From Dehalococcoidia bacterium (GTDB taxonomy: Bacteria > Chloroflexota > Dehalococcoidia > UBA2979): DNA of 64,000 nucleotides. Position numbers and translations under genes: made by a program. The number at the start of each line of letters is the position of its first letter. Position 1 is the stretch's first letter. The DNA lies in contig OZ253555.1 of NCBI GenBank assembly GCA_965262725.1, positions 2,368,001 to 2,432,000 of the forward strand, read 5' to 3'. Below, one piece after another: positions 2,563 to 49,447 of this stretch. The notes under the pieces are model-generated. The model searched no databases. It had not been told where the DNA came from and saw only the letters and a list, made by a program, of their open reading frames with translations.

Positions 2563-2586
2563 CTCAGTTATCCGAGGCGTCGCCCC
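2519..2586. repeat. 16-bp direct repeat TCCGAGGCGTCGCCCC
   Basis: Exact copies at 2519-2534 and 2571-2586, straddling the 3' end of the S8 gene. Confidence 0.85.
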
Positions 2587-5500
2587 CGTCCCCGCCTGCC
2601 TGCCCCTCGCTCTTGGTGATGAACGGCGTTGCCGCGGGGACGCCGCTCGCGAACAGCTCGCGGAAGGACCGGTTCACGAACTCGGGCGCGCCGAGGATGT
2701 AGGGAACGTACTCGCCCTCGTGCAGGGCGTAGACGACGGTGACATCGTGGCTCTGTGCGCACGCCTCGAGGTCCTTGACGCTGCCGCCCTCGTAGAGCAC
2801 GAGGCTGAAGCCGACGGCGATCTCGCCGCTCAGGCAGTCCGGCCCGAACTCCGGCACGTCGTCACTCGCAGGCGCGGGGGAGGGCGACCCCTCGTTCTTC
2901 GCAATCAGCGGCGTGAAGGAGGGGAGGCCGTCGGCGTAGAGCTCACGGAAGGACCGGTTCACGAACTCGGGCGCGCCGAGGATGTAGGGCAGGTATCCGC
3001 CGTCGTGCAGGGTGTAGAGGGTCGTGACGTGGCGGCTCTGCGCGCAGGCGACGAGGTCCTCGACGCTGCCAGCCGCGGAGATAACGAGACTGAAGCCGAC
3101 GGCGATGCTCCCGCTCAGGCAGGCGGGCGCCGCCAGTTGCTCCGCCGCGCCGCCGATGCGCACGCGGTAGACGCGCATGCGGCTCTCGTCGGGGGAGGTG
3201 ACGGTGACGGTGATCTCCTCGAGCCCGTCCAGCGCCACCTGGTGGCCGTCGGCGACCTCGTCGGCGTCGAGGGGGTCGATGACGACCCTCGCGCGGCTCT
3301 GCGCGGGCCGGGCCTCGACCGTCGTCTGCGTCGCGCCGTCGGCGGCGACGCCCTCGTACTCGGCCTGGCTGCGTGAGAACTCGCCGATCTCGACATCGCT
3401 GAGCGCAAGCGATACCAGCCGGGCGTCGATCGCGTCGGGCATGTTGTAGGTGTAGACCCTGCCGTCGCTCTCGTCGGCGACGTACATCACGTCGCCGTCC
3501 GACCAGAGGCCGCGCGGGCTGTTGTTGCTGACGCGGGGGAGCTTCCAGAACTCCTCATCGCGCACGCGCTCGAGTTCGAGGTCCTCTTCCTCGTCCGCGC
3601 TCGTGTCCTCCTCCTCGAGCGAGGGCAGGCGGTAGGCGAAGAGGCGCTTGTCGTTGTGGTCGGAGACCCAGACGCTGACGCCGTCGGACCAGATGCCGTG
3701 CGGGTCGTCGTTGTCGGAGTCGAGAGCGTACCCCGCGAGCAGCTCGCCGCTCTCCAGGTCGTAGCCGAAGAGGGCGTTGTCGCGGCCATCGAGGACCCAC
3801 AGCGTCGAGCCGCCGGACCAGATGCCGCGCGGGTCGTCGTTGTCGGGGTGCAGTGCGAGATCGGAGTCGGGGAGGCGCTCGCCGCTACCCAGGTCGTGTG
3901 CGAAGAGCTTGTCCTTGCCGCTGTCGGAGATCCAGATGGTTGTGCGGTCGGACCAGACCCCACGAGGCGCGAGGTTGGCGTCGTCGAGCTCGAACTCGAG
4001 CTCCTGGACGCGCTCGCCGCTGGCGAGGTCGTAGGCGTAGACGGCGTCGGCGGCGCCGTCGCCGTTCTCGGCGAGCCAGAGCGTCGTGCCGTCGGACCAG
4101 GAGCCGGTGGGGACATCGTGGCCGCCGTCGAGCTCCTCGATGTCGCGCGTGACGTTCCACTCGAACTCGATCTCGCTCGGGGTGGGACCGGACGGCCCGC
4201 CGCCGCCGCCCCCGCCGATCACAGTCACGGTCACCGGCGGCGTGACCGGAGTCGCGCTCACCTCGATGGTGACGTCGATCGTCGCCTCGCCGCCGTCCGG
4301 GTCGCGGGCGACGACCGTCACGAGATGCTCGGGCTGGGCTGCCGCATCGAGCACCATCCCGGCGACAAGGATCTGCCCCGTGTGCCGTGCAATCCGGAAG
4401 AAGGGGGCGCCAGTACCGCGCAGCGAGTAGCTGAGTTCCAGTGGCTCGTGGTCGACGTCGCTGGCGGTCACGGGTGCGCCGACGGGGTCTCCGTTCCGAT
4501 CGGTCTCGGCGACGACGCGCTCGGCGGTCTGCGCGTCGAACGACGGCGAGTCGTTGACCGATTCGACCGACACGTGCACCGTCGCGCCGGCACGCGGGTT
4601 GCGGCCGTCGGAGATCGTGTAGGTGAAGCTGTCGATCCCGTTCGTGTCGGGGTTCGGCGTGTAGGTGAAGGTGCTGTCGGCGTTGAGGACGGCTGTGCCG
4701 CTGCGCGGCGCCGACCCCGGCGAGACCGTCAACGTCTTGTCCTCGGGGTCCTCGTCGTTGCGCAGCACGTCGATGGTCGTGGCAACGTCCTCGACCGTGG
4801 CCACCTCGTCGTTCTTCGCCACCGGCGGCTCGTCCACGTCGGTGATCGCGATGGTGACGGTCGTGCTGTCGCTGTCGTCGGACGGGTCGGTCGCGGTCAC
4901 GAAGACGGAGTAGCTATCGCGGGTCTCGTGGTCGATCATCACGCTTGCGGCGACGCGGATCTGGCCGCTGGAGCCATCGATCGTGAAGCTGCCGCCATCC
5001 GTTCCCGACAGGGTGTAGGCGAGCACGTCGTTGTCGTCGTCCGTGGCCCGTACCCGCGCCCCCACGGCTGTGTCTTTGCCGGAGTTCTCGTCGACCGAGC
5101 GCTCCATCATGGAACTCGCGAACTCGGGTGGGTGGTTCGCCGGCGGCGCGGGCTGGGTCTGATGGTCCGTGGTCTCCTCCTCGCCCTTGTTCGGGCCGTG
5201 TCCGTCGGTGTACTCGACGGTCACGCGCAGGCGGCGGTTGAGGTCGTCATCCACCGGCGTGTACTGCCAGCCCGTGGCGCCGCCGATGGGCGTCCACGTA
5301 CCCCCGTCGAGGCGCTGCCAGCTCCAGGACTCCCCGGAGATGCGGCCGTCGAGGTCCGTCAGCGTGGCGGTGAGCGTGGTCCCGACCTGCGGCTGCTCCG
5401 AGGAGAGGGTGAGTGTGCCCGCTTCGTCCTCGTTGGTGACGGTAACGGTGACGCCGAATGTGGCGGTGTTTTCGACATCGGCGGCCTCGATCGTGACCTG

Positions 5501-8500
5501 GTACTCGTTGTCGCGATTGCTGTCGGCGGCTGTTTCGAAGTCGGGGATGTTGGCGAAGCCGAGGACGCCGTTGGTCAAGCTGAAGTCACCGGCGTCGGGG
5601 CCGGAGAGGGAGACGATGACGGTACCGCGTTCGGGATCGCTCGCGGAGTAGGAGCCGAGCGTCCCCCTGTCGTTCTCGGCGAACTCGATCATGCTGTCGC
5701 CCGTGATGATGGGGGCTTCGTCGACGTCTGTGACCGTGACCTTCACGGCGAACGTGCCCGTGTAGTTCTGGTCCGAGGCGCGCAGGGTGACGTCGTAGGT
5801 GTTGTCGCGGCCGACGTCGGCCGGGGCGTCGTAATCGGGCACGTTGACGAAGCGCAGCTCGCCCGACGTGTCGTCGAACTCGAAGGCGGCCGCGTCCGGG
5901 CCGGCGAGTGTCTCCCAGGCCGAGGGCTGTCCTTCCGGGTCGGTCTGCGTGTAGCTGCCGATGAACACCGTGCCGTTTTCCTCGATAGTGACGTGGGCGG
6001 GACCATCTATCTCGGGGGCCTCATCGGCGTCCGTGGGCCTGACCAGCACATCGAGGCTCCCGCTGCCGAAGGCATCGGATGCAAGGACGCTAACCTCGTA
6101 GACGTCGTCCTCATTGTGGTCGTCGACGTCTTCGTAGTTGGGTCGCTGCTTGAATGTCAGCTGGCCTGATTCGTTGATCTTGAAGAGCTCGCCATCGTCG
6201 CCTCCGACGTCGAATTCGACTGGATCCTCAGGCTTCTCCGGGTCGACGCCCACGTAGGTGCCGACGGTCCCCACGCTGTCTTCGGGGAAGTCCAGATCGG
6301 TCGGGCCCGTGACGATCGGCGGTTCCTCCTGGTCCGTCACCGTGATCTTGACCATGAGTTCCCGGCTGGAGCGGATGCCGTCGGAGATGCTCACCAGGAC
6401 CTCGTAGAGGTTGTCCCGGTCGCTGTCCGTCGGGTTCTCGAAGTCGGGCGGGGTGACGAACCTCAGCTCGCCGTCCTCTTCCTCGCCGTTGTCGATGTCG
6501 CCGTCGTCCCCGTGGCTGAAGAGGCCGATGTCCGGCCCCACGAAGGCGATGGTCATCTGGTCGCCTTCGCGGTCCATGCCTACGTACTCTTCCACCTTCC
6601 CCTCAACGTTCTCGGTGACCGTGAAGCTCTCGCGGCCCTGGATGCTGGGAGGGTCGTTCTCATCCAGGACGTCGATGACCACGTCGACGGAATCGTCGAC
6701 TGCCGGGTCGGGCACGCCGCTCCTGTGCCTGTTGTCGCTCACGTGGACGGTGACGCGGTACTGGTTCGTTGTTTCGTAGTCGAGCGCGGTCTTTCTGAAC
6801 AATTGGCCGGTCGACGGATCGATGTCGAGGATGTCGTCGCTGACTCCCGTGAGGGTGTAGGTCAGGGAGTTGTCGTCGGGGTCGACGGCGCCGACAGGCT
6901 CCCCGATGTTCGGGCTGGCCTGGTGCTCGCCGATGCTGCGGACGCCCGACTCGGTCGCGGGAAACACGGAATCGACGTTCACGGGGGCAGGCGTGCCGGT
7001 GCTTGTCGCGGACCAGGGGCCGTCCCCTGCGCTGTTGGCGGCGCGCACCTGCACGTCGTACTTCACGCCATTGGTGAGGTTGGTGACGGAGGCGCGCGTG
7101 TGGACGTCGCCGCTGCGCCACGCTCCAGTCGACACGATCCAGTTGTCGTCGGCCTTGTCGCTCGCATCGCTGCGGATACGGCGAATGTCGTAGCGCTGGA
7201 TGTCGGCGCCGCCATCGCTGGCCGGCGGCTCCCACGCGACGACGAGCCCCTCGTCGCTGTCCGTGACGACGATGTTCGTGGGGACTCCCGGCGCAGCCGC
7301 GACGCTGCCGACGACAGTCTCCGACCAGGGGCCACCGCCTGAGCTGTTGACCGCCCGGACCTGGACGTCGTACCGAACGGCAGGGGTCAGGCCCGTGAGG
7401 TCGTACGAGAGGGTGCCGGAGGTCCAGGCGCTCGTGACCTCGGTCCAGTGGGAGTCCGCCTTGTCCGCAGCGTCGCTGCGGATGTATCGCACGTCGTAGG
7501 AGGTGATGGGAGATGTACCGGTGTTGCCGGGAACGGTCCAACTGACCGCCAGGGAGCCGCCGACGGTGGTGCCGGATGGGGTTGCGAGGAACCCGGGCTT
7601 CTGGCTGTGTCCGTACACCTTCAGGCGGAAGTTCCTGAGTATCCCGTCCTTGTCGGCAGCCTCATCGGTGATGCGCAGTTTCCACTCACCGTCGGGGCTC
7701 TCCCCCAGGTGCTTCGCCGAACCGAAGCGGAGCGCGCCCCAGTGAGGTTCCCGGAGCAGGTCGCCAAAGTAGTCTCGGACCTCTCCGGAGTGCAGCAGTT
7801 GGGACGTGGCGCCCGATGGGGATTCCAACTCGATCTTGAGGTCCCGAATACTCGAGTGATCGAGATTGATGGTGATTTCAACGAACTCGATAAAGTCGAC
7901 ATCACTGTCGGGGAAGGTCACCGTACGCGTATAGGGCGTGTGGAGGGTATCAATGGCCACATCGGGGCCGTCCCACGTCGCCTCGGCGCTTCGCATGGTG
8001 GGCACGTTGGTGGTCCACCCCTTGGCGAGAGTGACCGCGGCGCCGGCATCGACAACGCCGAAGCCGTATTTGTGGTTGAACGAGTAGTAGTCGGTGTCGG
8101 ATCCGTAGCGCAGTGCGCCCTGCTCCCAGCCACCGTCGCCCGCATGGTTCTTGCGCGCCGAAGCGGCCAGGATCAGCTTCACGTCGCGCCAGGTCAGATT
8201 CGGGCTGGCGGACCGCATCAGTGCGACCACGCCGGACACGATGGGCGTGGCCGCCGAGGTACCGCCGAAGTTGTCCCTGTAGAGCCCCGGCCTGAAATCA
8301 CTACCGTCGCTACCGAAGCCGAGGGTGGCCCCCTCGGCCGTCGTCGTGATGCCCGGCTGACTCACTCCGTTTGACGGGGCGCACACCCACAGGTTGGCGC
8401 CCGGTTCTGAGTAGATGCTCCTCACGTCGTTGTAGTTGACCGCGCAGACAGCCGTCACGCCATAGAAGTTCACGTACCCGTCCAGGTTGGAGTTGTCGTT

Positions 8501-10627
8501 GGCTCGCGAGCTGTCTCCCCCGTTGCCACCGGCCCAGATGTAGGAGAGCCCGCGGCCGCCATCCCCCTGCCGGAGGCCTGTCTCGATCGCGGCCCGCCAG
8601 ACGCTGGGGGAGGGGTGTGGGAGGCCGTCGTCTTGCGGGCCCCAGCTGTTGGACGATATCTGGGTCGTGACCCTGTTGCGGGTCATCGCGTCCACCTCGT
8701 AGCGGAGATCCTGTCCCTCGTACGCTAGATAGTCCACGTAGTTGTAGCTGTAGATCGTCGCTCCGGGCGCGACGCCGCGGACGCCGACGTCGTTGTGCTC
8801 CGCGGCGATGAGCCCCGCAACCGCAGTCCCATGGTTCACAAAGAAGAGCTCAAAGACTTCTGATGGGGTGCCGTATGCCTCAGCCCAGTAGTCGAAGTTG
8901 CGGCTGGTATCCACGTTATTCTTCAGGTCCTCATGTCTGTAAAATAGTCCGTCATCCACGATGGCGATGTTCACGCCCGCGCCCGTGGTCCCCTCTTCCC
9001 ACACCTCCTCGACATTAATGTCCTGCATCGCCCCGCCTGAAAACTGGCCGGTGTTGTTCAGGTGCCACTGGCAGCCGTAAAATGTATCGATGGCGGCATC
9101 CGTGGTGAGCTCCATGCACCGCTCAAAAAAGCTCTTATACGCCCCCTCGGGCTGGACGAAGAGGAAGTATGCGCCCGTCATTCCACCCCTTCCCTTCACA
9201 CGGAGTTTGTACGTCCTTCCGGCCTCGAACAGGCCAAACGCGTAACCGGCTATGTAGTCGCGCGCGTAACTATCCCACCGTGCGTGATCGATCGTATAGA
9301 AGTCGAGGCGCGTGTTCTGATCATCGTAGGCTGTTATTTTCAGGTCAGTCTCTTCGTACTCGACCGTTACGGCGACGACGGATGCATGAGTGTCCTCATC
9401 AAAGGAGATACTGAAGTAGTCGGCATCTGACGAAGATGAAATACGCCCCGGCACCCCGGCGCCCGGAGGCATGGGAGTAGCGGTGTTCAGGGAGTTGCCG
9501 GGGTTCGGCGCCTCCCCCACCTGCATCACGTACCCTCCCGTGAAGTAGGACTGGGTGCCCTCGACCTTGATGTAGTACGTTCCGGCTGCGCCGGTGCCGC
9601 GCAACATGAACCCCTGGGCAATATGACGACCTCCTAAGGTCTGGTGAATGAACAGATCATCCTGAAGAAAGAATTTGAAGGATGTAGCCAGTGTGTTCCC
9701 GCTGGCATCGAGGAGTTTCGCGTTGACAAAGGTCTCGCTGAACGCCACGACGTAGAAGTCGGTCGGCGAACTGAACTCGAGCTTGTAGTAGTCAACGTCG
9801 TAGCTGTTGGTGTCTCCGGGCCGCCCGATCCGCCCAGCGGTCACGAGGCCGGGGTAGGCGGCGGCAGCTGAAGGGCGGCTGTTTCCGATATCGGCGGGCA
9901 GGATCTCCACGTGGATTTCGTACGGTCCCGTCGCGCCGGCGTTGCCCGCCACCGAGGCGTAGTAGGTTCCGGCGGCAAGGTACCCATGCAGGATGAAGTT
10001 CCAGGGGTTGTCGGGAAGGATGGTGTCGTTGCTTGACTCCTGGGACTGGTCGTTGTCGTCCAGCAGTTCGCCGACGACATCGACGGGCCCGGTGCTGCGT
10101 ACCAGGATGTCGGAGTCTTCGGCCAGGACGAAGCTGAAGAAGTCCTTGTCGGTCTCGGAACCAATTCGCCCGGCTGCCACCGCGGGAGTCGAGGCGCTCA
10201 CGACCAGCGCCGTGGCCGTGGAGGTCGTACCGCCGTAGTCGTTGGTCGTGCCCGTGGAGGTGGCCGACCAGTCGCCGTCGCCGGTGGCGTTGACGGCCCG
10301 GACCTGCACGTCGTACCCCGTGCTGTCCCTGAGCCCGGAGACGACGTACGAGAGCGAGCCCGACGTCCATACCTCCTCGTCCAGTAGGGTCCAGTTGGAG
10401 TCGGCCTTGTCGGTCGCGGCGCTCTCGATGTAGCGCAGGTCGTAGGCGCTGATCGCCGCCCCGCCGTCATAGAGCGGCGCGCTCCAGGTGACGGTCAGCG
10501 TGTTCGTCGTGGCCGCCACCGCGTCGATGGTCGGAGGATCGGGAGCGGTGGTCTGCGCCGCGGCGCGCTCGGTACCGCCCGCGAGAGCGAGCGCGGCGCC
10601 GAGGGCGAGCAGCGCGAGCCACCTCAC
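2564..10627 (-). CDS. Giant exported kexin/furin-like S8 protease-adhesin (~2687 aa): signal, FN3, 3 PPC-like repeats, S8, P-domain, 2 FN3, ~7 cadherin-like plus Ig repeats, shared C-terminal module
   Basis: Triad IAIVDDG, NHGTAVAG, GGTSAATP and oxyanion WAGGNGG. P-domain LKIELESPSG...GEWKLRITD. FN3 YDVQVRAVN. GTG at 10627 overlaps the upstream TGA (GTGA) and gives signal peptide MRWLALLALGAALALAGG..AAAQ. Confidence 0.9.
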   Translation of the reverse strand: MRWLALLALGAALALAGGTERAAAQTTAPDPPTIDAVAATTNTLTVTWSAPLYDGGAAISAYDLRYIESAATDKADSNWTLLDEEVWTSGSLSYVVSGLRDSTGYDVQVRAVNATGDGDWSATSTGTTNDYGGTTSTATALVVSASTPAVAAGRIGSETDKDFFSFVLAEDSDILVRSTGPVDVVGELLDDNDQSQESSNDTILPDNPWNFILHGYLAAGTYYASVAGNAGATGPYEIHVEILPADIGNSRPSAAAAYPGLVTAGRIGRPGDTNSYDVDYYKLEFSSPTDFYVVAFSETFVNAKLLDASGNTLATSFKFFLQDDLFIHQTLGGRHIAQGFMLRGTGAAGTYYIKVEGTQSYFTGGYVMQVGEAPNPGNSLNTATPMPPGAGVPGRISSSSDADYFSISFDEDTHASVVAVTVEYEETDLKITAYDDQNTRLDFYTIDHARWDSYARDYIAGYAFGLFEAGRTYKLRVKGRGGMTGAYFLFVQPEGAYKSFFERCMELTTDAAIDTFYGCQWHLNNTGQFSGGAMQDINVEEVWEEGTTGAGVNIAIVDDGLFYRHEDLKNNVDTSRNFDYWAEAYGTPSEVFELFFVNHGTAVAGLIAAEHNDVGVRGVAPGATIYSYNYVDYLAYEGQDLRYEVDAMTRNRVTTQISSNSWGPQDDGLPHPSPSVWRAAIETGLRQGDGGRGLSYIWAGGNGGDSSRANDNSNLDGYVNFYGVTAVCAVNYNDVRSIYSEPGANLWVCAPSNGVSQPGITTTAEGATLGFGSDGSDFRPGLYRDNFGGTSAATPIVSGVVALMRSASPNLTWRDVKLILAASARKNHAGDGGWEQGALRYGSDTDYYSFNHKYGFGVVDAGAAVTLAKGWTTNVPTMRSAEATWDGPDVAIDTLHTPYTRTVTFPDSDVDFIEFVEITINLDHSSIRDLKIELESPSGATSQLLHSGEVRDYFGDLLREPHWGALRFGSAKHLGESPDGEWKLRITDEAADKDGILRNFRLKVYGHSQKPGFLATPSGTTVGGSLAVSWTVPGNTGTSPITSYDVRYIRSDAADKADSHWTEVTSAWTSGTLSYDLTGLTPAVRYDVQVRAVNSSGGGPWSETVVGSVAAAPGVPTNIVVTDSDEGLVVAWEPPASDGGADIQRYDIRRIRSDASDKADDNWIVSTGAWRSGDVHTRASVTNLTNGVKYDVQVRAANSAGDGPWSATSTGTPAPVNVDSVFPATESGVRSIGEHQASPNIGEPVGAVDPDDNSLTYTLTGVSDDILDIDPSTGQLFRKTALDYETTNQYRVTVHVSDNRHRSGVPDPAVDDSVDVVIDVLDENDPPSIQGRESFTVTENVEGKVEEYVGMDREGDQMTIAFVGPDIGLFSHGDDGDIDNGEEEDGELRFVTPPDFENPTDSDRDNLYEVLVSISDGIRSSRELMVKITVTDQEEPPIVTGPTDLDFPEDSVGTVGTYVGVDPEKPEDPVEFDVGGDDGELFKINESGQLTFKQRPNYEDVDDHNEDDVYEVSVLASDAFGSGSLDVLVRPTDADEAPEIDGPAHVTIEENGTVFIGSYTQTDPEGQPSAWETLAGPDAAAFEFDDTSGELRFVNVPDYDAPADVGRDNTYDVTLRASDQNYTGTFAVKVTVTDVDEAPIITGDSMIEFAENDRGTLGSYSASDPERGTVIVSLSGPDAGDFSLTNGVLGFANIPDFETAADSNRDNEYQVTIEAADVENTATFGVTVTVTNEDEAGTLTLSSEQPQVGTTLTATLTDLDGRISGESWSWQRLDGGTWTPIGGATGWQYTPVDDDLNRRLRVTVEYTDGHGPNKGEEETTDHQTQPAPPANHPPEFASSMMERSVDENSGKDTAVGARVRATDDDNDVLAYTLSGTDGGSFTIDGSSGQIRVAASVMIDHETRDSYSVFVTATDPSDDSDSTTVTIAITDVDEPPVAKNDEVATVEDVATTIDVLRNDEDPEDKTLTVSPGSAPRSGTAVLNADSTFTYTPNPDTNGIDSFTYTISDGRNPRAGATVHVSVESVNDSPSFDAQTAERVVAETDRNGDPVGAPVTASDVDHEPLELSYSLRGTGAPFFRIARHTGQILVAGMVLDAAAQPEHLVTVVARDPDGGEATIDVTIEVSATPVTPPVTVTVIGGGGGGGPSGPTPSEIEFEWNVTRDIEELDGGHDVPTGSWSDGTTLWLAENGDGAADAVYAYDLASGERVQELEFELDDANLAPRGVWSDRTTIWISDSGKDKLFAHDLGSGERLPDSDLALHPDNDDPRGIWSGGSTLWVLDGRDNALFGYDLESGELLAGYALDSDNDDPHGIWSDGVSVWVSDHNDKRLFAYRLPSLEEEDTSADEEEDLELERVRDEEFWKLPRVSNNSPRGLWSDGDVMYVADESDGRVYTYNMPDAIDARLVSLALSDVEIGEFSRSQAEYEGVAADGATQTTVEARPAQSRARVVIDPLDADEVADGHQVALDGLEEITVTVTSPDESRMRVYRVRIGGAAEQLAAPACLSGSIAVGFSLVISAAGSVEDLVACAQSRHVTTLYTLHDGGYLPYILGAPEFVNRSFRELYADGLPSFTPLIAKNEGSPSPAPASDDVPEFGPDCLSGEIAVGFSLVLYEGGSVKDLEACAQSHDVTVVYALHEGEYVPYILGAPEFVNRSFRELFASGVPAATPFITKSEGQAGGDGGDASDN

Positions 10628-11610
10628 CTCAGGACGACCTGGCGCCGCCAGTTGGGGCTGGAGATGACCACGCCGTCCTCGGCGGCCAGCGCATTGGCGA
10701 GCTCGAGCGAGGGAAGGCCGGGAGCAGTGTCGATGAAGAACGCGTTGGGAGCGAAGTCCATCGTCTCGATGCTGCCCTTGGCGATGCCGTTCGTGGCGAC
10801 GAAGGTGTTGATCCGACGCTGGTCCCACTGCTCGTCGAGCACGAGCAGCACGCCGCCGGGGAGGGTCATCAAGGAGCCGGACTCGGTGCGGAAGACGGGG
10901 AGTGTGTCCTGCTCGTCGTGCCGCCCCGTCCGCTGGACGATGTTCTCCCTGCTACCGGCCCTGACGACGACGTCCTCGACGGTGTTATCGGCGGTGTTCT
11001 GGATGACGAGGTTGGTCTGCAGGTAGACGCGCCTGGTGTGCTCGCCGTCCTGCCAGGTGTGGAGTACGGACCCGCCGGTCGAGCGGGCCGACGCCCCGGA
11101 CTCGGTGGGGCTCGGCCCGACGGCGCCGACCTGTCCGGGCTGCGGGGTTGGCGAGGCGGGCCACCCGCGAAATGCGGCGCCGCTGCTCGCCGGTGTGGGG
11201 TCCCGGGTGTTGGCGCCCGCGGCCGCAGTTCGCCGATCCGGGTCGCGGGCGGGCAGGGGCGCCGGGGTCGCGGGCGCTGCGGTGGCCGTGGGGGGGCCTT
11301 CTTGCCCGCGGAGCTCGGGTGTCGGCGTGCTCGTCGAGGTCGCGCTCGCCGAAGACCGAGCTTCGCTGCCAGCAGTTGGGGAGGGAGGCGCCGGCGCCGT
11401 GGCCGCCGGTGTGGGGTTAGCCGTGCCCGTGCTCGCCGGAGCGCGCTCGCCGCCGCTGTCCTGCAGGGAGGGTGGCGCCGTGGCCGTCGGAGTTGTCGCT
11501 GCCGGTTCGGGATCCGGGCGGTTGCAGCCGGTGAGGAGCATGGCGGCAGTGGCTATGAGAGAGACGACTGCGACGGCGGCGGGGAGTGTGAATCGCGTCC
11601 GCATGGGCAC
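10624..11610 (-). CDS. Lipoprotein with Pro/Ala/Thr linker and a C-terminal domain resembling a subtilase propeptide/external chaperone
   Basis: Lipobox LLTGC. C-terminal PVFRTESGSLMTLPGGVLLVL...SLELANALAAEDGVVISSPNWRRQVVLR. Stop overlaps the protease start. Confidence 0.75.
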   Translation of the reverse strand: MPMRTRFTLPAAVAVVSLIATAAMLLTGCNRPDPEPAATTPTATAPPSLQDSGGERAPASTGTANPTPAATAPAPPSPTAGSEARSSASATSTSTPTPELRGQEGPPTATAAPATPAPLPARDPDRRTAAAGANTRDPTPASSGAAFRGWPASPTPQPGQVGAVGPSPTESGASARSTGGSVLHTWQDGEHTRRVYLQTNLVIQNTADNTVEDVVVRAGSRENIVQRTGRHDEQDTLPVFRTESGSLMTLPGGVLLVLDEQWDQRRINTFVATNGIAKGSIETMDFAPNAFFIDTAPGLPSLELANALAAEDGVVISSPNWRRQVVLR

Positions 11611-11788: not shown

Positions 11789-12272
11789 GCGCCGGGTCAC
11801 CGGCCAGCACCGCTCCACGCAGCGCCGCCTCCCGGCGCGCGGCCGCGGCGACGACGCGCTGCGGACGGAGTTGCACGCCTTCTCACGTGGCCACCCCCGC
11901 TGGGGTTACCGCCCGGCCTGGGCGGCCTTGCGCGAGAAGGGATGGGGCGTGAATCGCAAGCGGGTGCAACGGCTGTGACGTGAGGAGGGGCTGCGCGTCC
12001 CGGTGAGACGACGCAAGCGTCAGCGTCTCGGGGACTCGGCAGTGCCCGCCGTGCGGCTGCGGGCTGAGCGGCCGAACCACGTCTGGGCGCTGGACTTCCA
12101 GTTCGACCAGACCGCGGACGGGCGGGTCTTGAAGCTGCTCAACGTCGTCGACGAGCACACACGGGAGGCGCTGGCGGTAGTGGCCGCCAGGAGCATCACC
12201 GCCGATTCCACGGCCTCAACGCTCGACCGGATCGTCGCCGGGCGCGGAACGGCGCCTGTGTACCTCCGCTGC
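11789..12272 (+). mobile_element. IS3-family orfB fragment (HTH_21 plus first half of rve), pseudogenised
   Basis: GQHRSTQR, HPRWGYR, VNRKRVQRL*REEGL (TGA at 11976), PNHVWALDF, VVDEHTRE. Truncated just before the DNG motif. Confidence 0.85.
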
Positions 12273-12417
12273 GGGTTGTTCGACCAGACCTGTCGCCAGT
12301 GCGCGACCGGGAAGGCCGCGAAGGGCGGGACCTCTGGCGCAGCGTCGCCGAGCACCGCCGCGGCCTCGGGGATGCGCGCCGGAGGCAGCCGGGGCGGGCG
12401 ACATGCCCGCGGAAGCC

Positions 12418-13100
12418 ATGAGCTGAGCCGCGCCAGCAACAACAGCCCGCGCGGTCTCTGGTCGGACGGCGACATCATGTACGTGGCCGACGCCAGCGAC
12501 GGCAGGGTCTACAGCTACAACATGCCCGACGGCGTCGACGCCCGCCTCGCTTCGCTCACCCTCAGCGATGTTGAGATCGGCGAGTTCTCCCCCGGCCGCC
12601 TGGAGTACGAGGGCGTCGCCGCCGAGGGCGTGGCGGAGACCACAGTCGCGGCGTCGCCGGTCCAGCGGGGGGCGACGATTGGGATCGGGCCAACCGACGC
12701 CGGCATGGACGCCGCGGGGCACCAGGCCACCGTCGAGGACGGCTCGGAGATCACCGTGACGGTGAGCTCGCCCGACGGCAGTCGCACGAAGGTCTACCGC
12801 GTGCGCATCGACGCGGAGGAGCAGAAGCCCGCGCCCGGTTGCCTGCGCGGCGATGTCGCCACGGGTTTCAGCCTTGTCGTCTACGAGGGCGGTAGGGTCG
12901 ATGAGCTCGAGATGTGCGCGCAGGGCCGCAACATCACCGCCGCCTACGCCCTGGTCGACGGCGAGTACGCGCCCTACATCCTCGGAGCTCCGGACTTCGT
13001 GAACGAGGCGTTCGGGGCGCTCTTCCCCGAGGGCCTCGCCCCGGCCACCCCGTTGATCGCCAGGAGCGCCGGACTTCCCGCAACGACGTCCAGCCAGTGA
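12418..13100 (+). pseudogene. Orphan 3' part of the shared C-terminal module (last blade, cadherin-like domain, one terminal repeat)
   Basis: ELSRASNNSPRGLWSDGDIMYVAD...CLRGDVATGFSLVVYEGG...YILGAPDFVNEAF. No signal peptide or start of its own. Confidence 0.85.
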
Positions 13101-16258: not shown

Positions 16259-16297
16259 CTTATGCGCTCGCCCGCCGGCATCCCGGGCCTCCTTTCT

Positions 16298-19862: not shown

Positions 19863-19874
19863 CTCCGGTTCCCC

Positions 19875-21720: not shown

Positions 21721-24700
21721 TCAGTCGCTCTTGGCGATCAGCGGCGTGGCCGGGGCGATGCCCTCGGGGAAGAGCTCGCGGAACGCCTCGTTCACGAACT
21801 CGGGTGCGCCGAGGATGTAGGGCACGTACTCGCCGTCGATCAGGGCGTAGACGGCGCTGACGTTGGTGCCCTGCGCGCAGCTGTCGAGGTCCTCGACGCT
21901 CCCGCCCTCGTAGAGCAGGAGGCTGAAGCCGCTGGCGATCTCGCCGCGCAGGCAGTCCGCCCCGAACTCCGGCACGGCGTCACTCGCTGGCGCCGGGCTG
22001 GGCGGCCCCTCGCTCTTGATGATGAGGGGTGTCGTGGCGGGGACGCCCCCTGCGAACAGCTCGCCGAAGGAGCTGTTCACGAAGTCGGGTGCACCGAAGA
22101 TGTAGGGCACGTAGCCGCCGTCGTTCAGGGTGTAGAGGGCCGTGGCGTGGCGGCTTTGCGCGCAGGCCACCAATTCCTCGACGCTGCCGCCCGCGTAGAC
22201 GAGGAGGCTGAAGCCGACGGAAACGGCGCCGCGCAGGCAGGCCGCCGTGGACGGCACGCCGGCCGCATCGCCGAAGCGCACGCGGTAGATCTTCGTGCGG
22301 CTCTCGTCCGCCGATGTCACGGTGATGGTGATCTCGGTGCCGCCGGCGACGGCGGCCTGGCGCCCGTCGGCCGCCTCGTCGCTGTCGGGGGGCTCGATGG
22401 CGACCGTCGCTGCGGGCTGGACCGCCTCCGCCTCGACCGTCGTCTCCGTCACGCCGTCTGCCGCGACGCCCTCGTACTCGGTCTGGTTGCTGGAGAACTC
22501 GCCGATGTCGACGCCGCCGAGGGTCAGCGAGGCGAGGCGAGCGTCGATGGGGTCGGGGATGTTGTAGCTGTAGACCTTGCCGTCGCTGGCGTCGGCGACG
22601 TACATCACGTCGCCGTCGGACCAGATACCTCGAGGGCTGTTGTTGCGGGCGCCGCTCAGCTCCTTGAAGTCCTCATCACTGACGCGCTCGAGTTCCTTGT
22701 TTTCCTCATTGGAGGCTTGCTCGTCGTCGGGCAGCGTGGGCAGCCGGTAGGCGATGAGCCGCTTAGCTCCGTCGTCGGAGACCCAGACGCCGACGCCATC
22801 CGACCAGATGCCGTGGGGGTCGCCGTTGGAGGCGTCGAGGGCGTACTCCGCGAGCAGGTCGCCGCTGCCGAGGTCGTAGGCGAAGAGGCTGTTCTTCCCA
22901 TCGTCCAACACCCACATCGTCTTGCCGTCGGACCAGATGCCGCGCGCGTCGCGGTTGCGTTCGGCGAGCACGAGGTCGCGCGCGCGGAGGCGGTCGCCAG
23001 TCGCGAGGTCGTGAGCGAAAAGGCGATTCTGGCCACTGTCGGAGACCCACACCGTCACGTCGTCCGACCAGAAGCCGCGGGGCGCGCGGTTGGCGGTGTC
23101 GAGGGCAAACTCGCGCTCCTCGACGCGCTCGCCGGTGGCGAGGTCGTAGACGTACACCGCATCGTCGGCGCCATCGCCGTTGTCGGCGATGTAGAGCATG
23201 TTGCCGTACGACCACATGCCCGTCGGCCGGTCGTTGCCGGGCTCGAGCGCCTCGATGTCGCGTGCAACGTTCCACTCGAAGTCGATGATGCTCGGAGCGG
23301 GCCCGGTGGGACCGCCACCGCCGCCGCCGCCCGTTCCGATCGCAGGTCGCGGCTTAATCGTGACGACCGCCTCGTCTGGACTGCCCCCGGTGACCCGATG
23401 CGGTAACGAGCCATTGAACGTGATCGTCACGATCTCACCGTCATCGTCGTCGGTGTCCTGGGTTGACGTGAATGTGAACGACTGCTCCGTCCCACCCGGT
23501 TCAAAGGTCAGCGTGAGCGGATCTGTGTCCGGGTCCATGGAGTAGTCATCTGCGGTGGCCCCGTCAGCCTCGGTCGTGAACTCCAGGGCGATCGTCACTT
23601 CCCGCTCTGGATCAGCGCTCAGGTTGATCTGGATTGCCTGGCTCATTCCCTCCGGGACCGTGTACTCCGCCTGTTCGAAGCCGACGGTCACCTCAGGATC
23701 GTCGTTATCGGTGATGCCGATGGTCGCTTCCGATGGTGAGCCTGCCGAGACCCTTGATGGCAGCGTGCCGAGCCCGATCGTCAAGCCCTCATCGTCGTCA
23801 TCGATGTCGTCGTCCTTGGCATTGATCGTGAAGGACTTCGAGCGTTGGTTCTCCGGGAATTCCACGCTCGTGGGCAATGGCTCGTCCACGTCGTCGGCGC
23901 TGTAGGTTCCGACGGGCGTAATCGTCAGCGGGACCGTGACGGCGCGCTCCGGCGCCTGGTCCAGGGTGACGGTCACGATCACCGATTCTCCTTCGGCGAC
24001 GGTCTCTGACGCAGCTTCGATCTTGACCATGACGTCCGGCACGTTGCCGTCAACGATTGCAACGGTCGTCGTCGACGGGTCACCCGTCGACGGATCAGGG
24101 GCGGTTACTCCATCCGGCAGCTCTCCGAACCGGATCTCAACGCTCTCGTCATCGTCGTCTTCCTCGTCCGCTGGCGCGGTCACGGTGAACATCGCCTCGG
24201 TCTGGTCGACGGCGAACGCGACGTTCGTCGGCACGCCGTCGTAGTCGCCATCCGAGATGCCGTTCATCGGCGTTTCGGTCAGTGGAATGGTCACCGTCCG
24301 CTCGGGCGCCGCGCTCAAGTGGACGGTCACCGACGCACTCCCGCCCTCGGGGACGATGTACGTGGCGGCGCCGAACTTCACCGTCACTTGCGGGTCGTCG
24401 TCGTCGGTGATGCTGATTTCCGTCGAGGGCACGTCGCCTGCCGAGACTCGGTCATCCGGCATCGTGCCGAAGCCTATCGTGACCTGGTCGTCGTCGTCGT
24501 CCTCGCTGTCATCGACGGTCATGAAGGTGATCGTCTCGGACCTCTTGTCGGTCGAGAGCGTCACGCTGGTGGGCACCCCGGTGTAGTCGGCGTCCGTGGC
24601 GCCGCCGTCGAACTTCGGCACCAGCTGGATGATCAGTTCCCGCTCGGGATCGACATCGAGCGAGACCGTGAGGTCCACCGCCGCACCCTCTGCCACGGTG

Positions 24701-27700
24701 TGCATGGCGTGCGAGAAGCTCACCTTGACGGACGGGTGGTCGTCGTCCGCGATTGCTACCGTGGTCTCGGCCGGACTGGCCTTGCTCACCCGAAGATCCG
24801 TGATCGTCCCAAACTCTATCTTGACGCTCTCGTCGTCATCATCGACGTCGTCGCCCGCTGCGGTGAGTTCAAACGTCTTCGATGTCTCGCCCGGACCAAA
24901 GGTCACGTCGTCCGGGATCGTGTAGTCGGCCGGGTCAGTGGGGTCGGGCGGGTCCGCCGGGTCAGTGGCGCCGTCCTGGCCGGACGCAGTCAACGGGACC
25001 TCGACCGTCCGCTCCGGGTCAGCGCTCAGCAACACCTTCACTGTGACCTTGTGCTCTTTCACGTCCGGGGTGTCTGGATCGTCGCTCTCGGCGACCGTGT
25101 ACGAGTCCTTTTCGAAGCTGACCATGACCATGGGAACGTCGTCGTCGGTGATATTGACGGTCGTCTCGGCGATGGTCCCCGCTGTGACGCCGGTAGGCAG
25201 CGTGTCGAAGCCGATGACCACGCTCTCGTCGTCATCGTCCACATCGTCCGAGTCCACGGTGAAGGCGAAGGTCTCTGAGGTCTGGCCGACGATGAAACTC
25301 ACGCTTGCCGGGAAGTCCGAGTAGTCGTCCCCGGTCGCGCCATCCTGGCCGCTCGAGGTCAGCGGAATGCTGACCATGCGCTCCGGGTCCTTGTTCAACG
25401 TCACGGTGATGGCGACAGTGGCGCCTTCGGCCGCTGTGTAGGTGGCAAGTTCGAAGTCGGCGACGACATCAACGATGTTATCGATGATGGTTACCGTCGC
25501 CTCGCTCGGGGTGCCGGCGGTCACGCCGGCCGGCAGCGAGGACCCGAAGCCGATCGTCACGCTCTCGCCGTCGTCACTGACGTTGTCGTTCGCCGCGGTG
25601 AACGTGATTCCCTTCGATGTGTCGGTAGCACTGAACGTGACGCTCTGGTCCACCAGGGTGTAGTCGGCAGCCGTGGCGCGGTCTGGAGTCGCGGTCAAGG
25701 GGATGGTGACCTGGCGCTGCGGCGCCGGGCTGACCAAGACCGTGACGGTGATGTCCCCGCCTTCGGGGGCGTCGTAGGTCGATGGGTCGAACTTGACCGT
25801 CACATTGGGGACATCGTCATCGGTGATGCTGACGACGGTCTCGGGTGTGTCGCCCGCGGTGATGCCCGTTGGCAAAGATGAACTGAATGCGATCTTGACG
25901 CTCTCACCCTCGTCGTCCGTGCTGTCGTGCTCTGCCGTGAACGTGAACGTCTTCTCCATGTCATTGGCTTCGAATGTGACGCTCATGGGGGTCGAGTAGT
26001 CGGTGCTGCCGGCGGTGTCGCTTGTGATCGTGAACGGAATCGTCACCTGGCGTTCGGGCGCAGCGCTCAGCTTCACCTTGACCGCGACCTCGTTCTCTTT
26101 CACCGGCGTGGTCGTATCGTCGCTCTCGGCGACCGTGTACGAGTCGCGTTCGAAGTTCACCTTGATGGACGGGAAGTCGTCGTCGGTGATGGAGACCGTG
26201 GCTACATTTGTGGTGCCCTCCGTCACGCCGTCGGGCAGGTTGTCAGTGTCGAAGCCGAGTGTGACGCTTTCGCCGTCGTCGTTGTCGGTATCGTGAGTGG
26301 CCTTGAACGTAATCGTCTTCTCGGTATCACCACTCGCGAAGGACACAGTCATCGGCACGCCCGAGTAGTCGCCGCTGCCGATGTTGGCCTCCGACCTGGA
26401 GATCGGGATCACCACCGTGCGCTCCGGAGCCGCGCTCAGCTTCACCTTGACCGCGACCTCGTTCTCTTTCACCGGCGTGGTCGTATCGTCGCTCTCGGCG
26501 ACCGTGTACGAGTCTTCTTCGAAGCTGACCGTCACCGCGGGAACGTCGTCGTCGGTGATCGAGACCGTTGACTGGCTGTAGGTTCCCAGCGAAACGCTGT
26601 CGGGCAGCGGGAGCGGCCCGAAGCCGAGCAGCAGCGACTCTCCATCGTCGTTTTCGGTGTCCTCCGTCGCAATGAAGCTGATGATCTTCTCGGTCTCACC
26701 ACTCGCGAAGGACACAGTCATCGGCACGCCCGAGTAGTCGCCGCTGCCGATGTTGGCCTCCGACCTGGAGATCGGGATCACCACCGTGCGCTCCGGGTCC
26801 GCGCTGAGCTTCACCTTGACATCGACGCTCTCACCCTCGTCGACAACGTACGTCGCATGTTCAAAGCTGACCATGACCGCGGGAACGTCAGTGTCGTCAA
26901 TGGTGACAATGGTAATGAAATGATCTCCCAAGCCGACTCTGTTCGGCAGTCCCAGGTCGGGCTCAAGCTCGACGAACTCACCGTCGTCGTTAAATGAGTC
27001 ATTGGCCGCGGTGAACCTGACGGTGGCCAGCGTTGCAGTCGCAGCGAACTCCACCACGACCGGGTCGACGGTATAGTCGTCGATTGTGGCAGTGGTCTCG
27101 GCGGTTGATTGCAGTGTGATCGTGATCAGGCGCTCTGGCGGGGCGGTCAATTCCATCATGAGATCTATATAATCGCCCTCAGACACCGAATACGTACCCT
27201 CTTTGAAGCCCACCTTGAGCACCGGATTGTCGTTATCCTCGATGCTGACCGTGGTGGTCGCGTACGTAGTGCCTGCCCCTACCCCCGCCGGCAGCGTTCC
27301 GAACTCGATCAATACCCACTCATCGTCGTCGTCCACATCGTCATTATTCGGAGTGAAGATGACCGTCTTCGCTGTTGCACCCGCCTCGAAGGTGACGCTG
27401 GTGTCGGACAAGCTGTAGTCCGCCACGGTTGCTCCGCCCTTACCGGTCGCCATGAGCGGGATGGTGACCGGGCTGCCCAGGGCCGGGCTCAGCGTGACGG
27501 TGACCGTGACCTCGGTCTCATTCAGCGGCGTGTTCGGGTTGTCTCTCTCTCCGCCCTCGTAAGTGGCGGCGCCGAAGTTCACCGTGGCAGCGACGTCGGC
27601 AATGCTCACTGCGGTCTCGAACGTGGTGCCGACCGCATAGCCGGGTGGCAACGCGCCGAGTTCGATCTTCACGCTTTCGCCGGTATCTCTCACCGAGTCC

Positions 27701-30700
27701 AGCCTGGCGCTGAACACGATCATCCCCGATGTGTCGCCCGCATCGACGGTGACGCTTGTGGGCACGTCGTAGTCGGCGGTGGTCGCGCCATCCTGCCCCG
27801 TGACCGTCAGCGGAATCACAACCGAGGTGCTCGGCGCCGCGTCCAGGGTGACCGTGATCGATACGGTGCCGCCCTCGTCGACGCTATAGGTGGACTGCCC
27901 GAGGTTCACCGCCACCAGCTGCGTCGCTTCGACGTCGTTGATAGTGATGACTGTTTCGTCCGGGCTGCCCTTGACCAGGCCGGCTGTCAACATATTCATA
28001 CTGAACGTGACGGTCTCGCCGTCGTCGGTCTCGGAATCAGTTCTGGCCCGGAACTGAAACGTCCTGGCGACTTCCCCGGCGGCGAAGATGACATTGCTCG
28101 GCACGCTCCCAAAGTCCGCCGCCGTCGCGCCGCTTACGGTTGCAAGCAGATCGACGCTGACCTGTTGCCCAGGGTCACCGCCGAGCTCGACCGACACTTC
28201 CACCATCTCGCCTTCGTCGACGGTGTAGGTGGCTGATCCAAAGCTAACTTCGAGGTTGCGGGTGGCGAGGACCGAGTAATACTGCGTCGTTGTGCCGTCT
28301 TCGGCCGTGACGGTGATGCCAATCTCGGACTCACCGGTCCAGGCGGCCTCTGTTGCCACGCCCGACATGGTGTCCGGCCCGTGGGTGTTCGACATCGTCG
28401 CGCCGCTAAAGCTCGTCATCCCGGTCAGCGTGACGCTTGTCGCCGCGGCGCCGATCGTGGCCGTGTAACTGGTCGTGGCCGAGTCGAACGCGGGCGACAG
28501 CGTGATGGCGCCGTTGTTGTCGACGAAGGCCAGGGCGCCCAATGTCGCGTCGGTTGAGGCGGCCTTGTCGACGTGAATCTTGTAGATCTTGGTCCGGCTC
28601 CCATCGGGCGAGGTGACCATGAACTTGACCAGGTTGTCGCCCGGGACGAGTGGCCAGACAGCGTCGTATGCCGCGGTGTTCGTGTCCTCGTGGCCGCCGA
28701 CGTAGAGGATGCTGTCCACGGTTCCGCTGGTGCTCGGCGTCACGACTCCGGTGAGGGAGTCGATCTCGCTGTCCGCGGTTGCGGTGTAGAGGAAGCTGTA
28801 CTTGTCGAAGGTTGGAGTGAGGGCGACCGCGTTTCCGTCGGAACCGGTCAGCGTGATCGAGCTCAGCGTGCCGTCGGTCTGGGTCGTCTGGTCGTTGTTG
28901 ATAATCAGACCGGACGCGGCAGTGACGAAGCCCAGTTGCGCGTTCTCGGATGGACTGCTGAGTTCAACATTGAAGGTCTCGTCGTCCTCGTCGACAGAGT
29001 CGGCCGTGGTGGTGATAGTGACGGTCTTCTCGGTCTCGTTGGCGGCGAAGGTCAGTGTCGCGGCGGATACGCCGGTGTAGTCGGAGTCGGCGGTGGTGGC
29101 GCTGTCGTCGGCCGTGCTGTATTCGACCGTGACTGCTTCACCCAGCGCCGAGCTGAGGCTGACCGTGAACTGGACGCCCGAGCCCTCGACCGCCTGCGAT
29201 CCGGTGATCGACAAGTGAGGCTTGCCGGCTTCCAGCGGCGAATTGAGCACCATCACCAGCGCCGCTGTCAGCCCATTGGTTGATTGGCAGCCTTCATTTG
29301 GCAGAGCGGCGGAGTGGATGACACGACAGCGGTCGGCGATGCTCCAGCCCTCGTCGCTCGACGGATCTTCGTCGTCATCCTTCGTATGAAGCAGACCCAC
29401 TTCTCCCTGGACTGATTCGACGTACACGAGATAGGTCGTGTTGGCGGCCAATGTGATCGTTTCACCGGCCGGCGCGGTGAAGGTGACGGCGCCCACTCCC
29501 GTGCCGAGGCTCGAGAAGTCGGGCCGCGTCAACGTATGCAGCCTGGCGCCGGGATCGACTCCACTCGCCGAGTAGATGTGAACGTCTGCCTGGGCATTGT
29601 TGGTTCGCTTTTGGAATGACGGAAGTGTGACGCTGCCCAGGACGGCGGGCTCGGAACCAGTGGTGAATGCTTGAGTGCGTGCCTTGAATTGGCTGCGCCC
29701 GAGTGAACCGATCAACAGCCGTTCGGTCCCCGGAATCAATTGCGTGGCATTGCCGACCAGCACCGTATTGTTGGCGGTGGGCGCGCTGATGGGTGTTGCG
29801 TAGGCGTGGCTCTCGCTTGTGGGTTCCTTGTTGGACTGGCCGGCTCCGTTGTACGCCACTACCTGGACGTTGTATTCCACGCCGCCGGTCAGCCCGGTGA
29901 TGGTATGAATCCGGGTCTTCCCACCGACGACCACGTCGCGGCGCCCGGCCGAGCCATCAAGGTCATGGACCTCCGCGCCCGACTTCCACATCACGTGATA
30001 GCCGTCGGCAGCGGCGACTTCACCCCAGCGGGCCTTGATCGATTCGACTTCTTCTTCAGCGGTCACGTCTCTTGTGAGCGCGGGGTCCTTCATTGTGAGG
30101 ACGATCTCGGCGATCCTGTTGTCACTGAATTTGCCGGTGTTGCGCAAGCTCGCGATCGTGCCTTGCGGCGAAGTCGCGGTGGTGCTGCTCTCGAATTCCG
30201 TGCCGTCCAGGGTGCCGGCATCGAACGGGAACAGTTCAATGGAGATTCTGTTATTTGCGTCTAATGTGGGCCAGGTTCCACCTTGATGTAGATCGTATGC
30301 GCTGACGCCGGCGAACCAGTCCGAGGACGGATTGATCTTGACGAGGATCGTGACGCAACTGAACTCTTCCTCTATGGCGAGGTCCGGCCCCCCCTTGCCT
30401 GTGGTAGGTCCGTTTGGCGGGTTTATCGTCCAGAAGTCCTGCGCATTGCCTGCCGCGACCGCCGCGTCCAGTTCTGCCTCGAAGGCAGCGGTAGAGCCCG
30501 TCTCAGCCAACGCCTGAACACCAGCGCTGGCCGTGCCAGCTACGCTGAAGAATGACACGTCGCACTTGTGAGCCACGATGATCGTATCGCCGAATCCGGC
30601 GTCGGACGGGCGCGTGACGCCCGTAGCGAGGGCCGCCACGTTGAACTTGCCAATGACTCGTGCTTTGAACTTTCGCAGCTCCGACGGGCTGGCGGCGTCC

Positions 30701-30810: not shown

Positions 30811-31374
30811 GCATGCTCCCCGACGGTGCTCACAGCGCGCAATCCACCCCGGGGCCGCGAGGGCTGCTCCGGCCAGAACGGCGTTATCAACGTCGCGATT
30901 CTCAGCAGCGGCGAGGTGCAACCCAATCGATATCCATGACGCGGTGTTCTTCGCAGTTGGCCGCTCACGCCCTCTCTTCGAGAGCACTCACGGTTCTGGC
31001 GGCCCGAGCGTCCGAGGCGACTCGCACACGACGGAGCGGCTCGACCGAACCTGGTGGGTGGCTGAGCCGGTGCGAATCCGCATCGGATCGGCCCTAATCG
31101 TACGGCTATGAGGGATAGCGTCAATCCGGCGTACTATCATTTCGCAGCGTACTGTGAGGTCGGCTTTCACGGACTCGAACCGTGGGCCTACCGCTCACCG
31201 GCCGACTGAGCGAGCGCTCCGAGTCACGGCGCGGCATGGGAGGCGGCGCGCCGCTTACCCGAGGGCGTCCCACAGTTGCGATAGGCGAGGCATCAGGGGT
31301 GAGGCTCCGTTCGGCAGGCGCATCACCGGCGGCGATCCCCTGGCGTCCGCAGCGCAGGGGAGTGGGAAGAACCC

Positions 31375-37668: not shown

Positions 37669-38040
37669 TCGTTGTCATCGTGCAGGGCGTACCCCGCGAG
37701 CAGCTCGCCGCTTACGAGGTCGTAGCCGAAGAGGGCGTTGTCGCGGCCATCGAGGACCCACATTTTCGCGCCGTCGGACCAGATGCCGCGCGGGTCGTCG
37801 TTGTCGGGGTGCAGTGCGAGATCGGAGTCGGGGAGGCGCTCGCCGCTACCCAGGTCGTGTGCGAAGAGCTTGTCCTTGCCGCTGTCGGAGATCCAGATGG
37901 TGCGGAGGTTGGACCAGACCCCGCGAGGCGCGAGGTTGGCGTCGTCGAGCTCGAACTCGAGCTCCTCGACGCGGTCGCCCGTGGCGAGGTCGTAGGCGTA
38001 GACGGCGTCGTCGGCGCCTGGGCCGTTCTCGGCGAGCTAG

Positions 38041-41552: not shown

Positions 41553-41799
41553 GGTTCGGCCCTCGTCGGCGGCAGCGACAGACGGCCGGGTGGCAGCGCT
41601 GCCTAACCCGAGTAACACCACCGCAGCGAGGAGCAGCGTTACGGCGCGACGAGCGCCGAGGGTCCGTCTGGAGGAGGATATCCTGGCGCTCGTTTCACAG
41701 TGGTTCACCACCTGCTCGGTGTTCATGCAGTCCGCGGGTCTCGTGACCACCTCGGGAGCCGCGTCCGCCACGGCTGAGGGTGACCCCTCCACCTGCGGG

Positions 41800-49442: not shown

Positions 49443-49447
49443 CTGCG

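Follow-up and report, generated by a model that had tools for sequence, protein, structure and literature searches.

A twin C-terminal domain of an undescribed family in giant proteins of Dehalococcoidia, and its candidate role in non-covalent surface retention

SLH, CWB2 and choline-binding proteins follow a common plan, in which a constant end binds the cell wall non-covalently and a variable end carries the function. SLH modules are made of three copies in tandem, mostly helical, with which they bind pyruvylated polysaccharide of the wall, and CWB2 modules of three tandem alpha/beta repeats. Dockerins are calcium-binding helical duplications of about 70 amino acids (aa). Sortase substrates carry an LPxTG motif, then a hydrophobic segment and then a basic tail, and the C-terminal domain of type IX secretion, about 80 aa long and folded as a beta-sandwich, is found on many large and varied surface proteins of diderm hosts. 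Here we present a paired domain, the twin, that ends a 2754-aa protein encoded in a 64-kilobase (kb) stretch of a Dehalococcoidia bacterium genome (contig OZ253555.1, positions 2,368,001 to 2,432,000 of the forward strand; this whole stretch is the window). A reading made from the letters and translations of the window (the sequence-only reading) had proposed it as a new envelope-binding domain. We describe the domain family and weigh the proposal that it is part of a module by which exported proteins may be retained on the cell surface.

The twin occupies window positions 2564-3125, the 3' end of the minus-strand open reading frame (ORF) 2564..10828, and makes up the last 186 residues encoded. 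In frame, the stretch 2567-3124 (minus strand) holds copy 1, a Pro-rich linker, copy 2 and a short tail, in that order, and the stop codon lies at 2564-2566. The span of 2564..3125 given by the sequence-only reading was correct at its start but one base too long at its end, 3124 being the first base of the Ala codon that precedes the first Cys. Each copy is about 80 aa long, and the two are 69% identical. The features of the gene, from its passenger to its stop codon, are as follows.

2564..10828, minus strand: whole gene, with signal peptide, FN3, S8 subtilase with P-domain, FN3, cadherins, Big_9 and constant module
4196..4216, minus strand: poly-Gly hinge at the border of variable passenger and constant module, also present in paralogs
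3494..4165, minus strand: five 'WSDG'-type repeats from the FEWN motif onward, beta-propeller-like by their repeat pattern
3155..3403, minus strand: Cadherin-like beta-sandwich (PF12733) directly N-terminal to the twin, sub-threshold here (20.4 bits against a cutoff of 24.2) and above the cutoff in paralogs
2885..3124, minus strand: copy 1 of the terminal domain, residues 2569-2648 of the 2754-aa protein, predicted as strand-helix-strand-strand-helix-strand
2840..2884, minus strand: Pro-rich linker of 15 aa from copy 1 to copy 2, predicted local distance difference test (pLDDT) 78-85 in the twin model
2600..2839, minus strand: copy 2 of the terminal domain, residues 2664-2743, pLDDT 96.7 in the single-domain model
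2564..2599, minus strand: tail of 11 aa plus stop codon, acidic, Gly/Asp-rich and non-hydrophobic, pLDDT below 50

The twin is a genuine and undescribed domain family. A six-frame motif scan found 10 domain copies at six places in the window, with 57-71% identity to the first copy. In the alignment of these copies 25 of 80 columns are invariant, among them Cys2, Cys27, the GFSL strand and G-A-P-x-F-V-N, which bears out the two conserved Cys and the near-invariant GAPxFVN motif that the sequence-only reading had seen in each copy. A profile of the 10 copies was searched exhaustively against 1.84 billion sequences, with representatives defined as clusters at 50% identity, and matched 667 representative clusters at E<=0.001 and 150 at E<=1e-30; the latter number places the domain far beyond chance. 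Word-index searches delivered 158 relatives of 102-326 aa and 320 of 327-2000 aa. Copy numbers and tails were determined with a local hidden Markov model in 379 fetched proteins, of which 363 hold two copies, 12 one, 2 three and 2 five, with a median of 5 residues C-terminal of the last copy. The proposed family is thus defined by a length of about 80 aa, Cys at positions 2 and 27, a GFSL strand, a GAPxFVN loop-helix and, usually, two C-terminal copies after a Cadherin-like domain. Of 588 full copies, 580 contain both Cys, which probably form a Cys2-Cys27 disulfide in each; in P0360 and P0362, distant relatives with five copies, the GAPxFVN core is retained and both residues are missing, a joint loss that fits a disulfide. 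The NCBI name of one relative is taken from the adjacent Cadherin-like domain only.

AlphaFold2 models of the twin (82-row alignment) reached a pLDDT of 89.7 and a predicted template modelling score (pTM) of 0.80, with all five models at 88-90. For a single copy (42-row alignment) the values were 96.7 and 0.85; three of the five models scored at least 95 and two near 55. Each copy is predicted to run strand-helix-strand-strand-helix-strand, with a short N-terminal strand. Four domain queries against Pfam at E values up to 10 gave scattered matches only, all with E of at least 0.024 and far under the cutoffs. No NCBIfam family was matched by the twin, and the sole match among PDB sequences was a designed protein (E=0.27). 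Foldseek found nothing at E<=0.001 in the PDB (best E 0.53 for the twin and 0.68 for the single copy, top TM-score 0.42) or, with the single-copy model, in BFVD (best E 0.39, top TM-score 0.49). The structures behind these TM-scores, biotin-carboxylase-type N-domains in the PDB and an uncharacterised phage protein in BFVD, are not taken as homologs. The ESM Atlas search gave no usable match. A strong hit to a known enzyme fold, against which the sequence-only reading had asked to check, was found neither by Foldseek (PDB, BFVD) nor by the profile searches. The candidate new domain therefore stands, with no match in Pfam, NCBIfam or PDB sequences and no Foldseek neighbour in the PDB or BFVD for two confident models. 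The domain was not described in the literature searched, a search that did not extend to the domain tables in the supplement of the preprint 10.1101/2024.05.28.596244; that preprint describes a novel class of S-layer proteins from Tepidiformales. Whatever its function, the domain merits a family entry and a solved structure, since its confident models lack any structural neighbour in the PDB or BFVD.

In their overall design the twin proteins resemble the SLH and CWB2 proteins of Bacillus and Clostridium: tandem small domains stand at one end, export is by the Sec route, many paralogs carry unrelated domains, a covalent sorting signal is absent, and the hosts are monoderms bearing surface layers (S-layers). 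The twin differs from both in having two copies rather than three, in being acidic and in following propeller-like and Cadherin-like domains. Measured against the definition of SLH, it has two copies in 363 of 379 relatives and a predicted alpha/beta rather than helical fold, and SLH (PF00395) was matched neither by the four domain queries at E up to 10 nor in six whole window proteins. CWB2 (PF04122) gave no Pfam match, and no CWB2 chain, nor any other wall-binding protein, is among the 50 best Foldseek PDB matches listed. The peptidoglycan-binding SPOR domain, which has an RNP-like fold, is similar to a twin copy in size and in its strand-helix-strand-strand-helix-strand order, but the conserved Cys pair and GAPxFVN set the twin apart; SPOR (PF05036) has no Pfam match at E up to 10 and no structure among the same 50 matches. 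LysM, SH3b, PG_binding and choline-binding repeats were not matched by Pfam inside the twin at E up to 10. With dockerins, which dock onto a shared surface scaffold, the twin shares the form of a duplicated acidic C-terminal module common to many proteins; it differs in its 80-aa alpha/beta copies with two Cys, and neither a Pfam dockerin match nor a cohesin-like partner was identified. The family works in its logic like an SLH or CWB2 module or a dockerin and is a member of none of them: profile and fold searches gave no match, and the copy number differs.

The twin forms the end of a constant C-terminal module of about 520 aa that comprises the poly-Gly hinge, five WSDG blades, the Cadherin-like sandwich and the twin. 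PF12733 matches about 85 residues just ahead of the twin, not the twin itself, and by Pfam precedes it in all five window ORFs that carry it. Where 520 or more residues lie upstream, the WSDG region is present in 148 of 154 proteins. Its five repeats, of about 45 aa each ('P-R-G-I-W-S-D-G...W-V-x-D'), look like a beta-propeller from their sequence pattern. Pfam gave nothing above cutoff there, only sub-threshold NCH3 matches that were taken as spurious and, in relatives, weak SGL, Lactonase and PQQ matches; the region may itself be an undescribed family. Ahead of the hinge the passengers of the window paralogs are wholly different: FN3, S8 subtilase with P-domain, cadherins and Big_9 in one, Spondin_N, FN3 and eleven Calx-beta in another, PPDK_N-like and Calx-beta in a third, RCC1 and Calx-beta in a fourth. 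Partner Pfam families in the relatives are almost all extracellular repeats or enzymes, and LRR is also found among the passengers.

All four full N-termini readable in the window look like signal peptides. Among stop-bounded ORFs of 450 aa or more from related loci, 21 of 30 begin in this way, and the remaining nine are short or start inside a domain; this agrees with the expectation of the sequence-only reading that the domain should occur in signal-peptide proteins. The signal peptides look cleavable, with Ala-x-Ala-type sites. For the 2754-codon ORF the likely start codon, judged from the sequence, is a GTG at 10627 immediately ahead of the hydrophobic signal-peptide segment. At the other end, the tail of this protein (2564..2599) has no transmembrane segment and no sorting motif. 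In none of the 379 relatives is the last copy followed by a hydrophobic stretch, and an LPxTG-like string occurs in two, neither with a transmembrane segment behind it, which upholds the earlier remark that no C-terminal transmembrane helix, LPxTG-like motif or barrel is visible. With no hydrophobic tail in 379 proteins the family fails the pattern of sortase substrates. Signal peptides, paired Cys and a tail free of membrane and LPxTG signals fit a secreted protein that is held non-covalently.

The size of about 80 aa, the extreme C-terminal site and the many unrelated cargoes also recall the C-terminal domain of type IX secretion, and the twin might on these grounds be a signal for export or sorting, recognised and cut off by machinery of its own. 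This seems highly improbable: NCBIfam, as said, has no match, the predicted fold is alpha/beta and not a beta-sandwich, two copies are present and are at times internal or four-fold, no conserved machinery gene lies nearby (6-kb flanks of 74 loci), and the hosts, described as monoderm in excerpts of PMC10284905, have no outer membrane to cross.

The 74 loci stem from a genome scan in which the peptide pattern GF[SN]LV[VL]Y[EQ]G gave 131 relatives, the best 80 of which were resolved into loci; the pattern is narrow and says nothing of absence elsewhere. All 74 are titled Dehalococcoidia, Tepidiformaceae, Dehalococcoidaceae or "Chloroflexi bacterium" metagenome-assembled genomes (MAGs), so that the restriction to one lineage, which the sequence-only reading had wished to see checked, is found within the reach of this narrow pattern and the best 80 of 131. 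The family thus appears from these sequences to be lineage-restricted. A search from the Cys-less five-copy protein P0360 returned 13 proteins and no new named lineage. Among the best 80 of 131, 13 loci lie on chromosome OZ244720.1 and 10 on OZ253575.1; 85 of 94 domain-bearing ORF segments of the genome loci hold two copies, with a median tail of 5 residues. Occurrence in one lineage with many paralogs per chromosome fits a lineage-specific envelope feature.

A signal peptide, variable passengers, a hinge and a constant module without membrane or sortase signal together make up the design of non-covalently retained monoderm surface proteins. By analogy with these, the constant module ending in the twin may retain exported proteins on the cell surface, to which we give a chance just short of even. 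Export of the proteins would follow the Sec route, directed by an N-terminal signal peptide that can be cleaved. The twin would be an extracytoplasmic pair of small alpha/beta domains, each stapled by a Cys2-Cys27 disulfide. The module would grip the monoderm envelope, that is the S-layer and/or the wall, non-covalently, and the unrelated N-terminal passengers (protease, cadherin, FN3, Calx-beta, LRR, RCC1) would face outward. Judged from its architecture, the twin itself may bind the envelope or dock onto an S-layer. Suitable targets exist in the class, as cultured Tepidiforma (Dehalococcoidia) is described in excerpts of PMC10284905 with a membrane, 20-30 nm of peptidoglycan and a tetragonal S-layer.

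Several findings weigh against retention. The domain has no sequence or fold similarity to known wall- or S-layer-binding domains. It is acidic, with a median isoelectric point of 4.29 in 588 copies and only 0.7% of them above 7; many modules that bind anionic wall polymers are basic. The whole proteins are just as acidic (median 4.26). ORF clustering detected no recurrent neighbour genes in the 6-kb flanks of the 74 loci, the clusters being shadow ORFs of the family gene. More than 30 residues follow the last copy in 42 of 379 relatives, many of which look frameshifted, and a minority of copies is internal, as in P0340, P0338, P0369 and locus L021. P0340 has a Big_9 domain C-terminal of the last copy. 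L021 reads four tandem copies, four FN3, a Cadherin-like domain, a second twin and LysM (E=1.1e-11), in a frame that looks mosaic. Finally, conservation in the twin does not exceed that in the propeller-like and Cadherin-like parts of the module.

In P0338 and P0369 the twin is followed by three to four two-Cys repeats of about 95 aa ('...NTGG.GV..R..C...ARV...GW.DG....C.GW..V...G..SWV...Y'), which may be SH3b-like wall-targeting repeats, with E=0.044 only against Pfam SH3_3.

Internal copies, and proteins with four or five of them, would also suit an external ligand binder of the lectin or carbohydrate-binding-module type, in which the twin or module binds host or sponge matrix, a glycan or another cell while the proteins are released or held by another part. 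Carbohydrate-binding modules are likewise constant C-terminal units behind variable enzymes. The LysM or possible SH3b-like repeats (E=0.044 only) that a few members add would be redundant if the twin anchors. By their names, three relatives stem from 'Chloroflexi bacterium' MAGs, and excerpts of PMC8163846 report enrichment of cadherin/FN3 proteins in sponge-associated MAGs. We nevertheless regard an external binder as unlikely: with cleavable-looking signal peptides and no other visible anchor, an adhesin of this kind would be unattached to its cell, and a module identity of 62-68% across paralogs and genomes is more in keeping with an unchanging target on the cell itself than with diverse targets outside it.

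Conservation was compared as mean pairwise identity in 70 proteins sampled from 106 complete ones, with 300 residues taken as the passenger, and amounted to 20% for the passenger, 68% for the WSDG part, the best conserved, 61% for the Cadherin-like part and 62% for the twin. From this uniformity the constant unit is the whole module of about 520 aa, with the twin as its last piece, and if the proteins are retained at all, this may be the work of the entire module and not of the twin. Uniform conservation is equally expected of a purely structural or assembly role, in which the twin caps or stabilises the module or drives an oligomer or lattice without recognising the envelope. The pTM of 0.80 suggests that the modelled copies pack as a fixed pseudo-dimer, and copies within a protein (63% identity) are about as alike as like-positioned copies across proteins (62-65%), which fits a symmetric unit. 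No direct data contradict such a role; a plain cap has no obvious need for two conserved terminal copies in 363 of 379 proteins, and we consider it distinctly unlikely. Separate lineages of copy 1 and copy 2, as in an ancient fixed heterodimer, were rejected because the two are barely distinct (0.646 and 0.618 within type against 0.593 across). The predicted complex of two twins scored 0.00, run without controls, and carries no weight for or against self-association.

The 3' modules of three paralogs, 34560-36152 (plus strand), 36546-38036 (minus strand) and 2564-4170 (minus strand), show mosaic DNA identity. The inverted neighbours 34560-36152 and 36546-38036 are 100% identical over about 450 nucleotides and drop to 80-83% in the twin, and another pair has 93-95% identity in copy 1 and 69-80% just upstream; these sequence patterns suggest gene conversion or recombination between modules. 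In a more specific form of retention, which also seems distinctly doubtful, the constant module (five-bladed WSDG propeller, Cadherin-like sandwich and twin) would be a plug-in system, new in kind, of the S-layer in wall-containing Dehalococcoidia. The twin would dock, as dockerins do, onto one shared protein receptor within or beneath the lattice, and a single scaffold would then display dozens of passenger arrays per genome, each exchangeable for another. The assemblies could correspond to the unexplained protein complexes that, in excerpts of PMC10284905, line both faces of the Tepidiforma S-layer at a spacing of about 9 nm. The shared 3' module would further serve as a homology arm for passenger swapping between paralogs, a role that would account for both the mosaic identity and the abundance of 3' fragments.

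Most Dehalococcoidia, an abundant class, have not been cultured, and their envelope architecture is still under study; peptidoglycan and S-layers have been documented in them only recently, according to excerpts of PMC10284905. The domain marks a large, lineage-limited family of giant adhesin- and enzyme-bearing surface proteins, with members rich in "eukaryote-like" cadherin, FN3, LRR and Spondin domains, of a kind discussed for sponge symbiosis in excerpts of PMC8163846. If the twin or its module is a retention device, it would represent a new anchoring principle for monoderm envelopes, a handle on the surface proteome in MAGs and a tag for surface display.

Three intact giant proteins in the window end in a twin: 2564..10828 (minus strand), 21721..30987 (minus strand) and 31923..36152 (plus strand). 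The copies outside the first of these are listed below.

21724..22242, minus strand: twin (22003-22242 and 21724-21957) at the C-terminus of the 3088-aa protein 21721..30987, with Spondin_N, FN3 and eleven Calx-beta
35631..36149, plus strand: twin (35631-35870 and 35916-36149) at the C-terminus of the 1409-aa PPDK_N / Calx-beta protein 31923..36152
36564..37088, minus strand: twin (36849-37088 and 36564-36803) at the C-terminus of the fragment ORF 36546..37763, the back half of a transposase-split gene
12837..13076, plus strand: single copy at the end of the fragment ORF 12003..13100, an in-frame fusion with part of an rve integrase
41822..42061, minus strand: orphan single copy with a stop codon two codons ahead of its Cys

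The orphan copy at 41822..42061 is probably the remnant of a lost family member. The earlier statement that one or two copies stand at the end of every family member is true only when the RCC1-repeat ORF 39249..42149 (minus strand) is read as the front half of a split gene whose back half, 36546..38036 (minus strand), carries the twin. This split gene, 36546-42149 (minus strand), encodes RCC1 repeats, Calx-beta and the constant module, and is interrupted at about 38037-39251 by an insertion of about 1.2 kb that carries a DDE transposase (38041-39087, plus strand; Pfam DDE_Tnp_1 and DUF772). The front half stops at '...WSDDTTL*', and the back half picks up with 'LAENG...', precisely at the point where the intact paralog has 'WSDDTTLWLAEN'.

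The integrase fusion 12003-13100 (plus strand) and the orphan 41822-42061 (minus strand) are 3' fragments of the family, and database relatives of 480-640 aa are similarly cut. The hinge is either a breakage or recombination hotspot or else hard to assemble. Module-only proteins as S-layer subunits were considered and rejected, as the relatives of 480-640 aa all begin inside the module or at the poly-Gly hinge and are truncated calls or fragments.

Two passengers are unusual. Spondin_N, which is typical of animal extracellular matrix proteins, covers residues 131-284, at the N-terminus of the 3088-aa Calx-beta protein 21721-30987 (minus strand; E=1.7e-22). PPDK_N, the AMP/ATP-binding domain of pyruvate phosphate dikinase, spans residues 440-735 of the protein 31923-36152 (plus strand; E=1.6e-20), alongside a signal peptide and the surface module. 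The latter architecture recurs in many relatives of about 1300-1500 aa, and an ATP-grasp-type domain outside the cell is a puzzle.

The genes around the family members (13958-21092 and 48347-51729) include a DDE transposase (14825-16183, minus strand) and two histidine-kinase/LuxR response-regulator pairs. An ArdC-like antirestriction/metallopeptidase protein (48347-49447, minus strand) and a DnaG-type primase (50083-51729, minus strand) are encoded in the same neighbourhood, and the part of the window with the family genes looks like an island.

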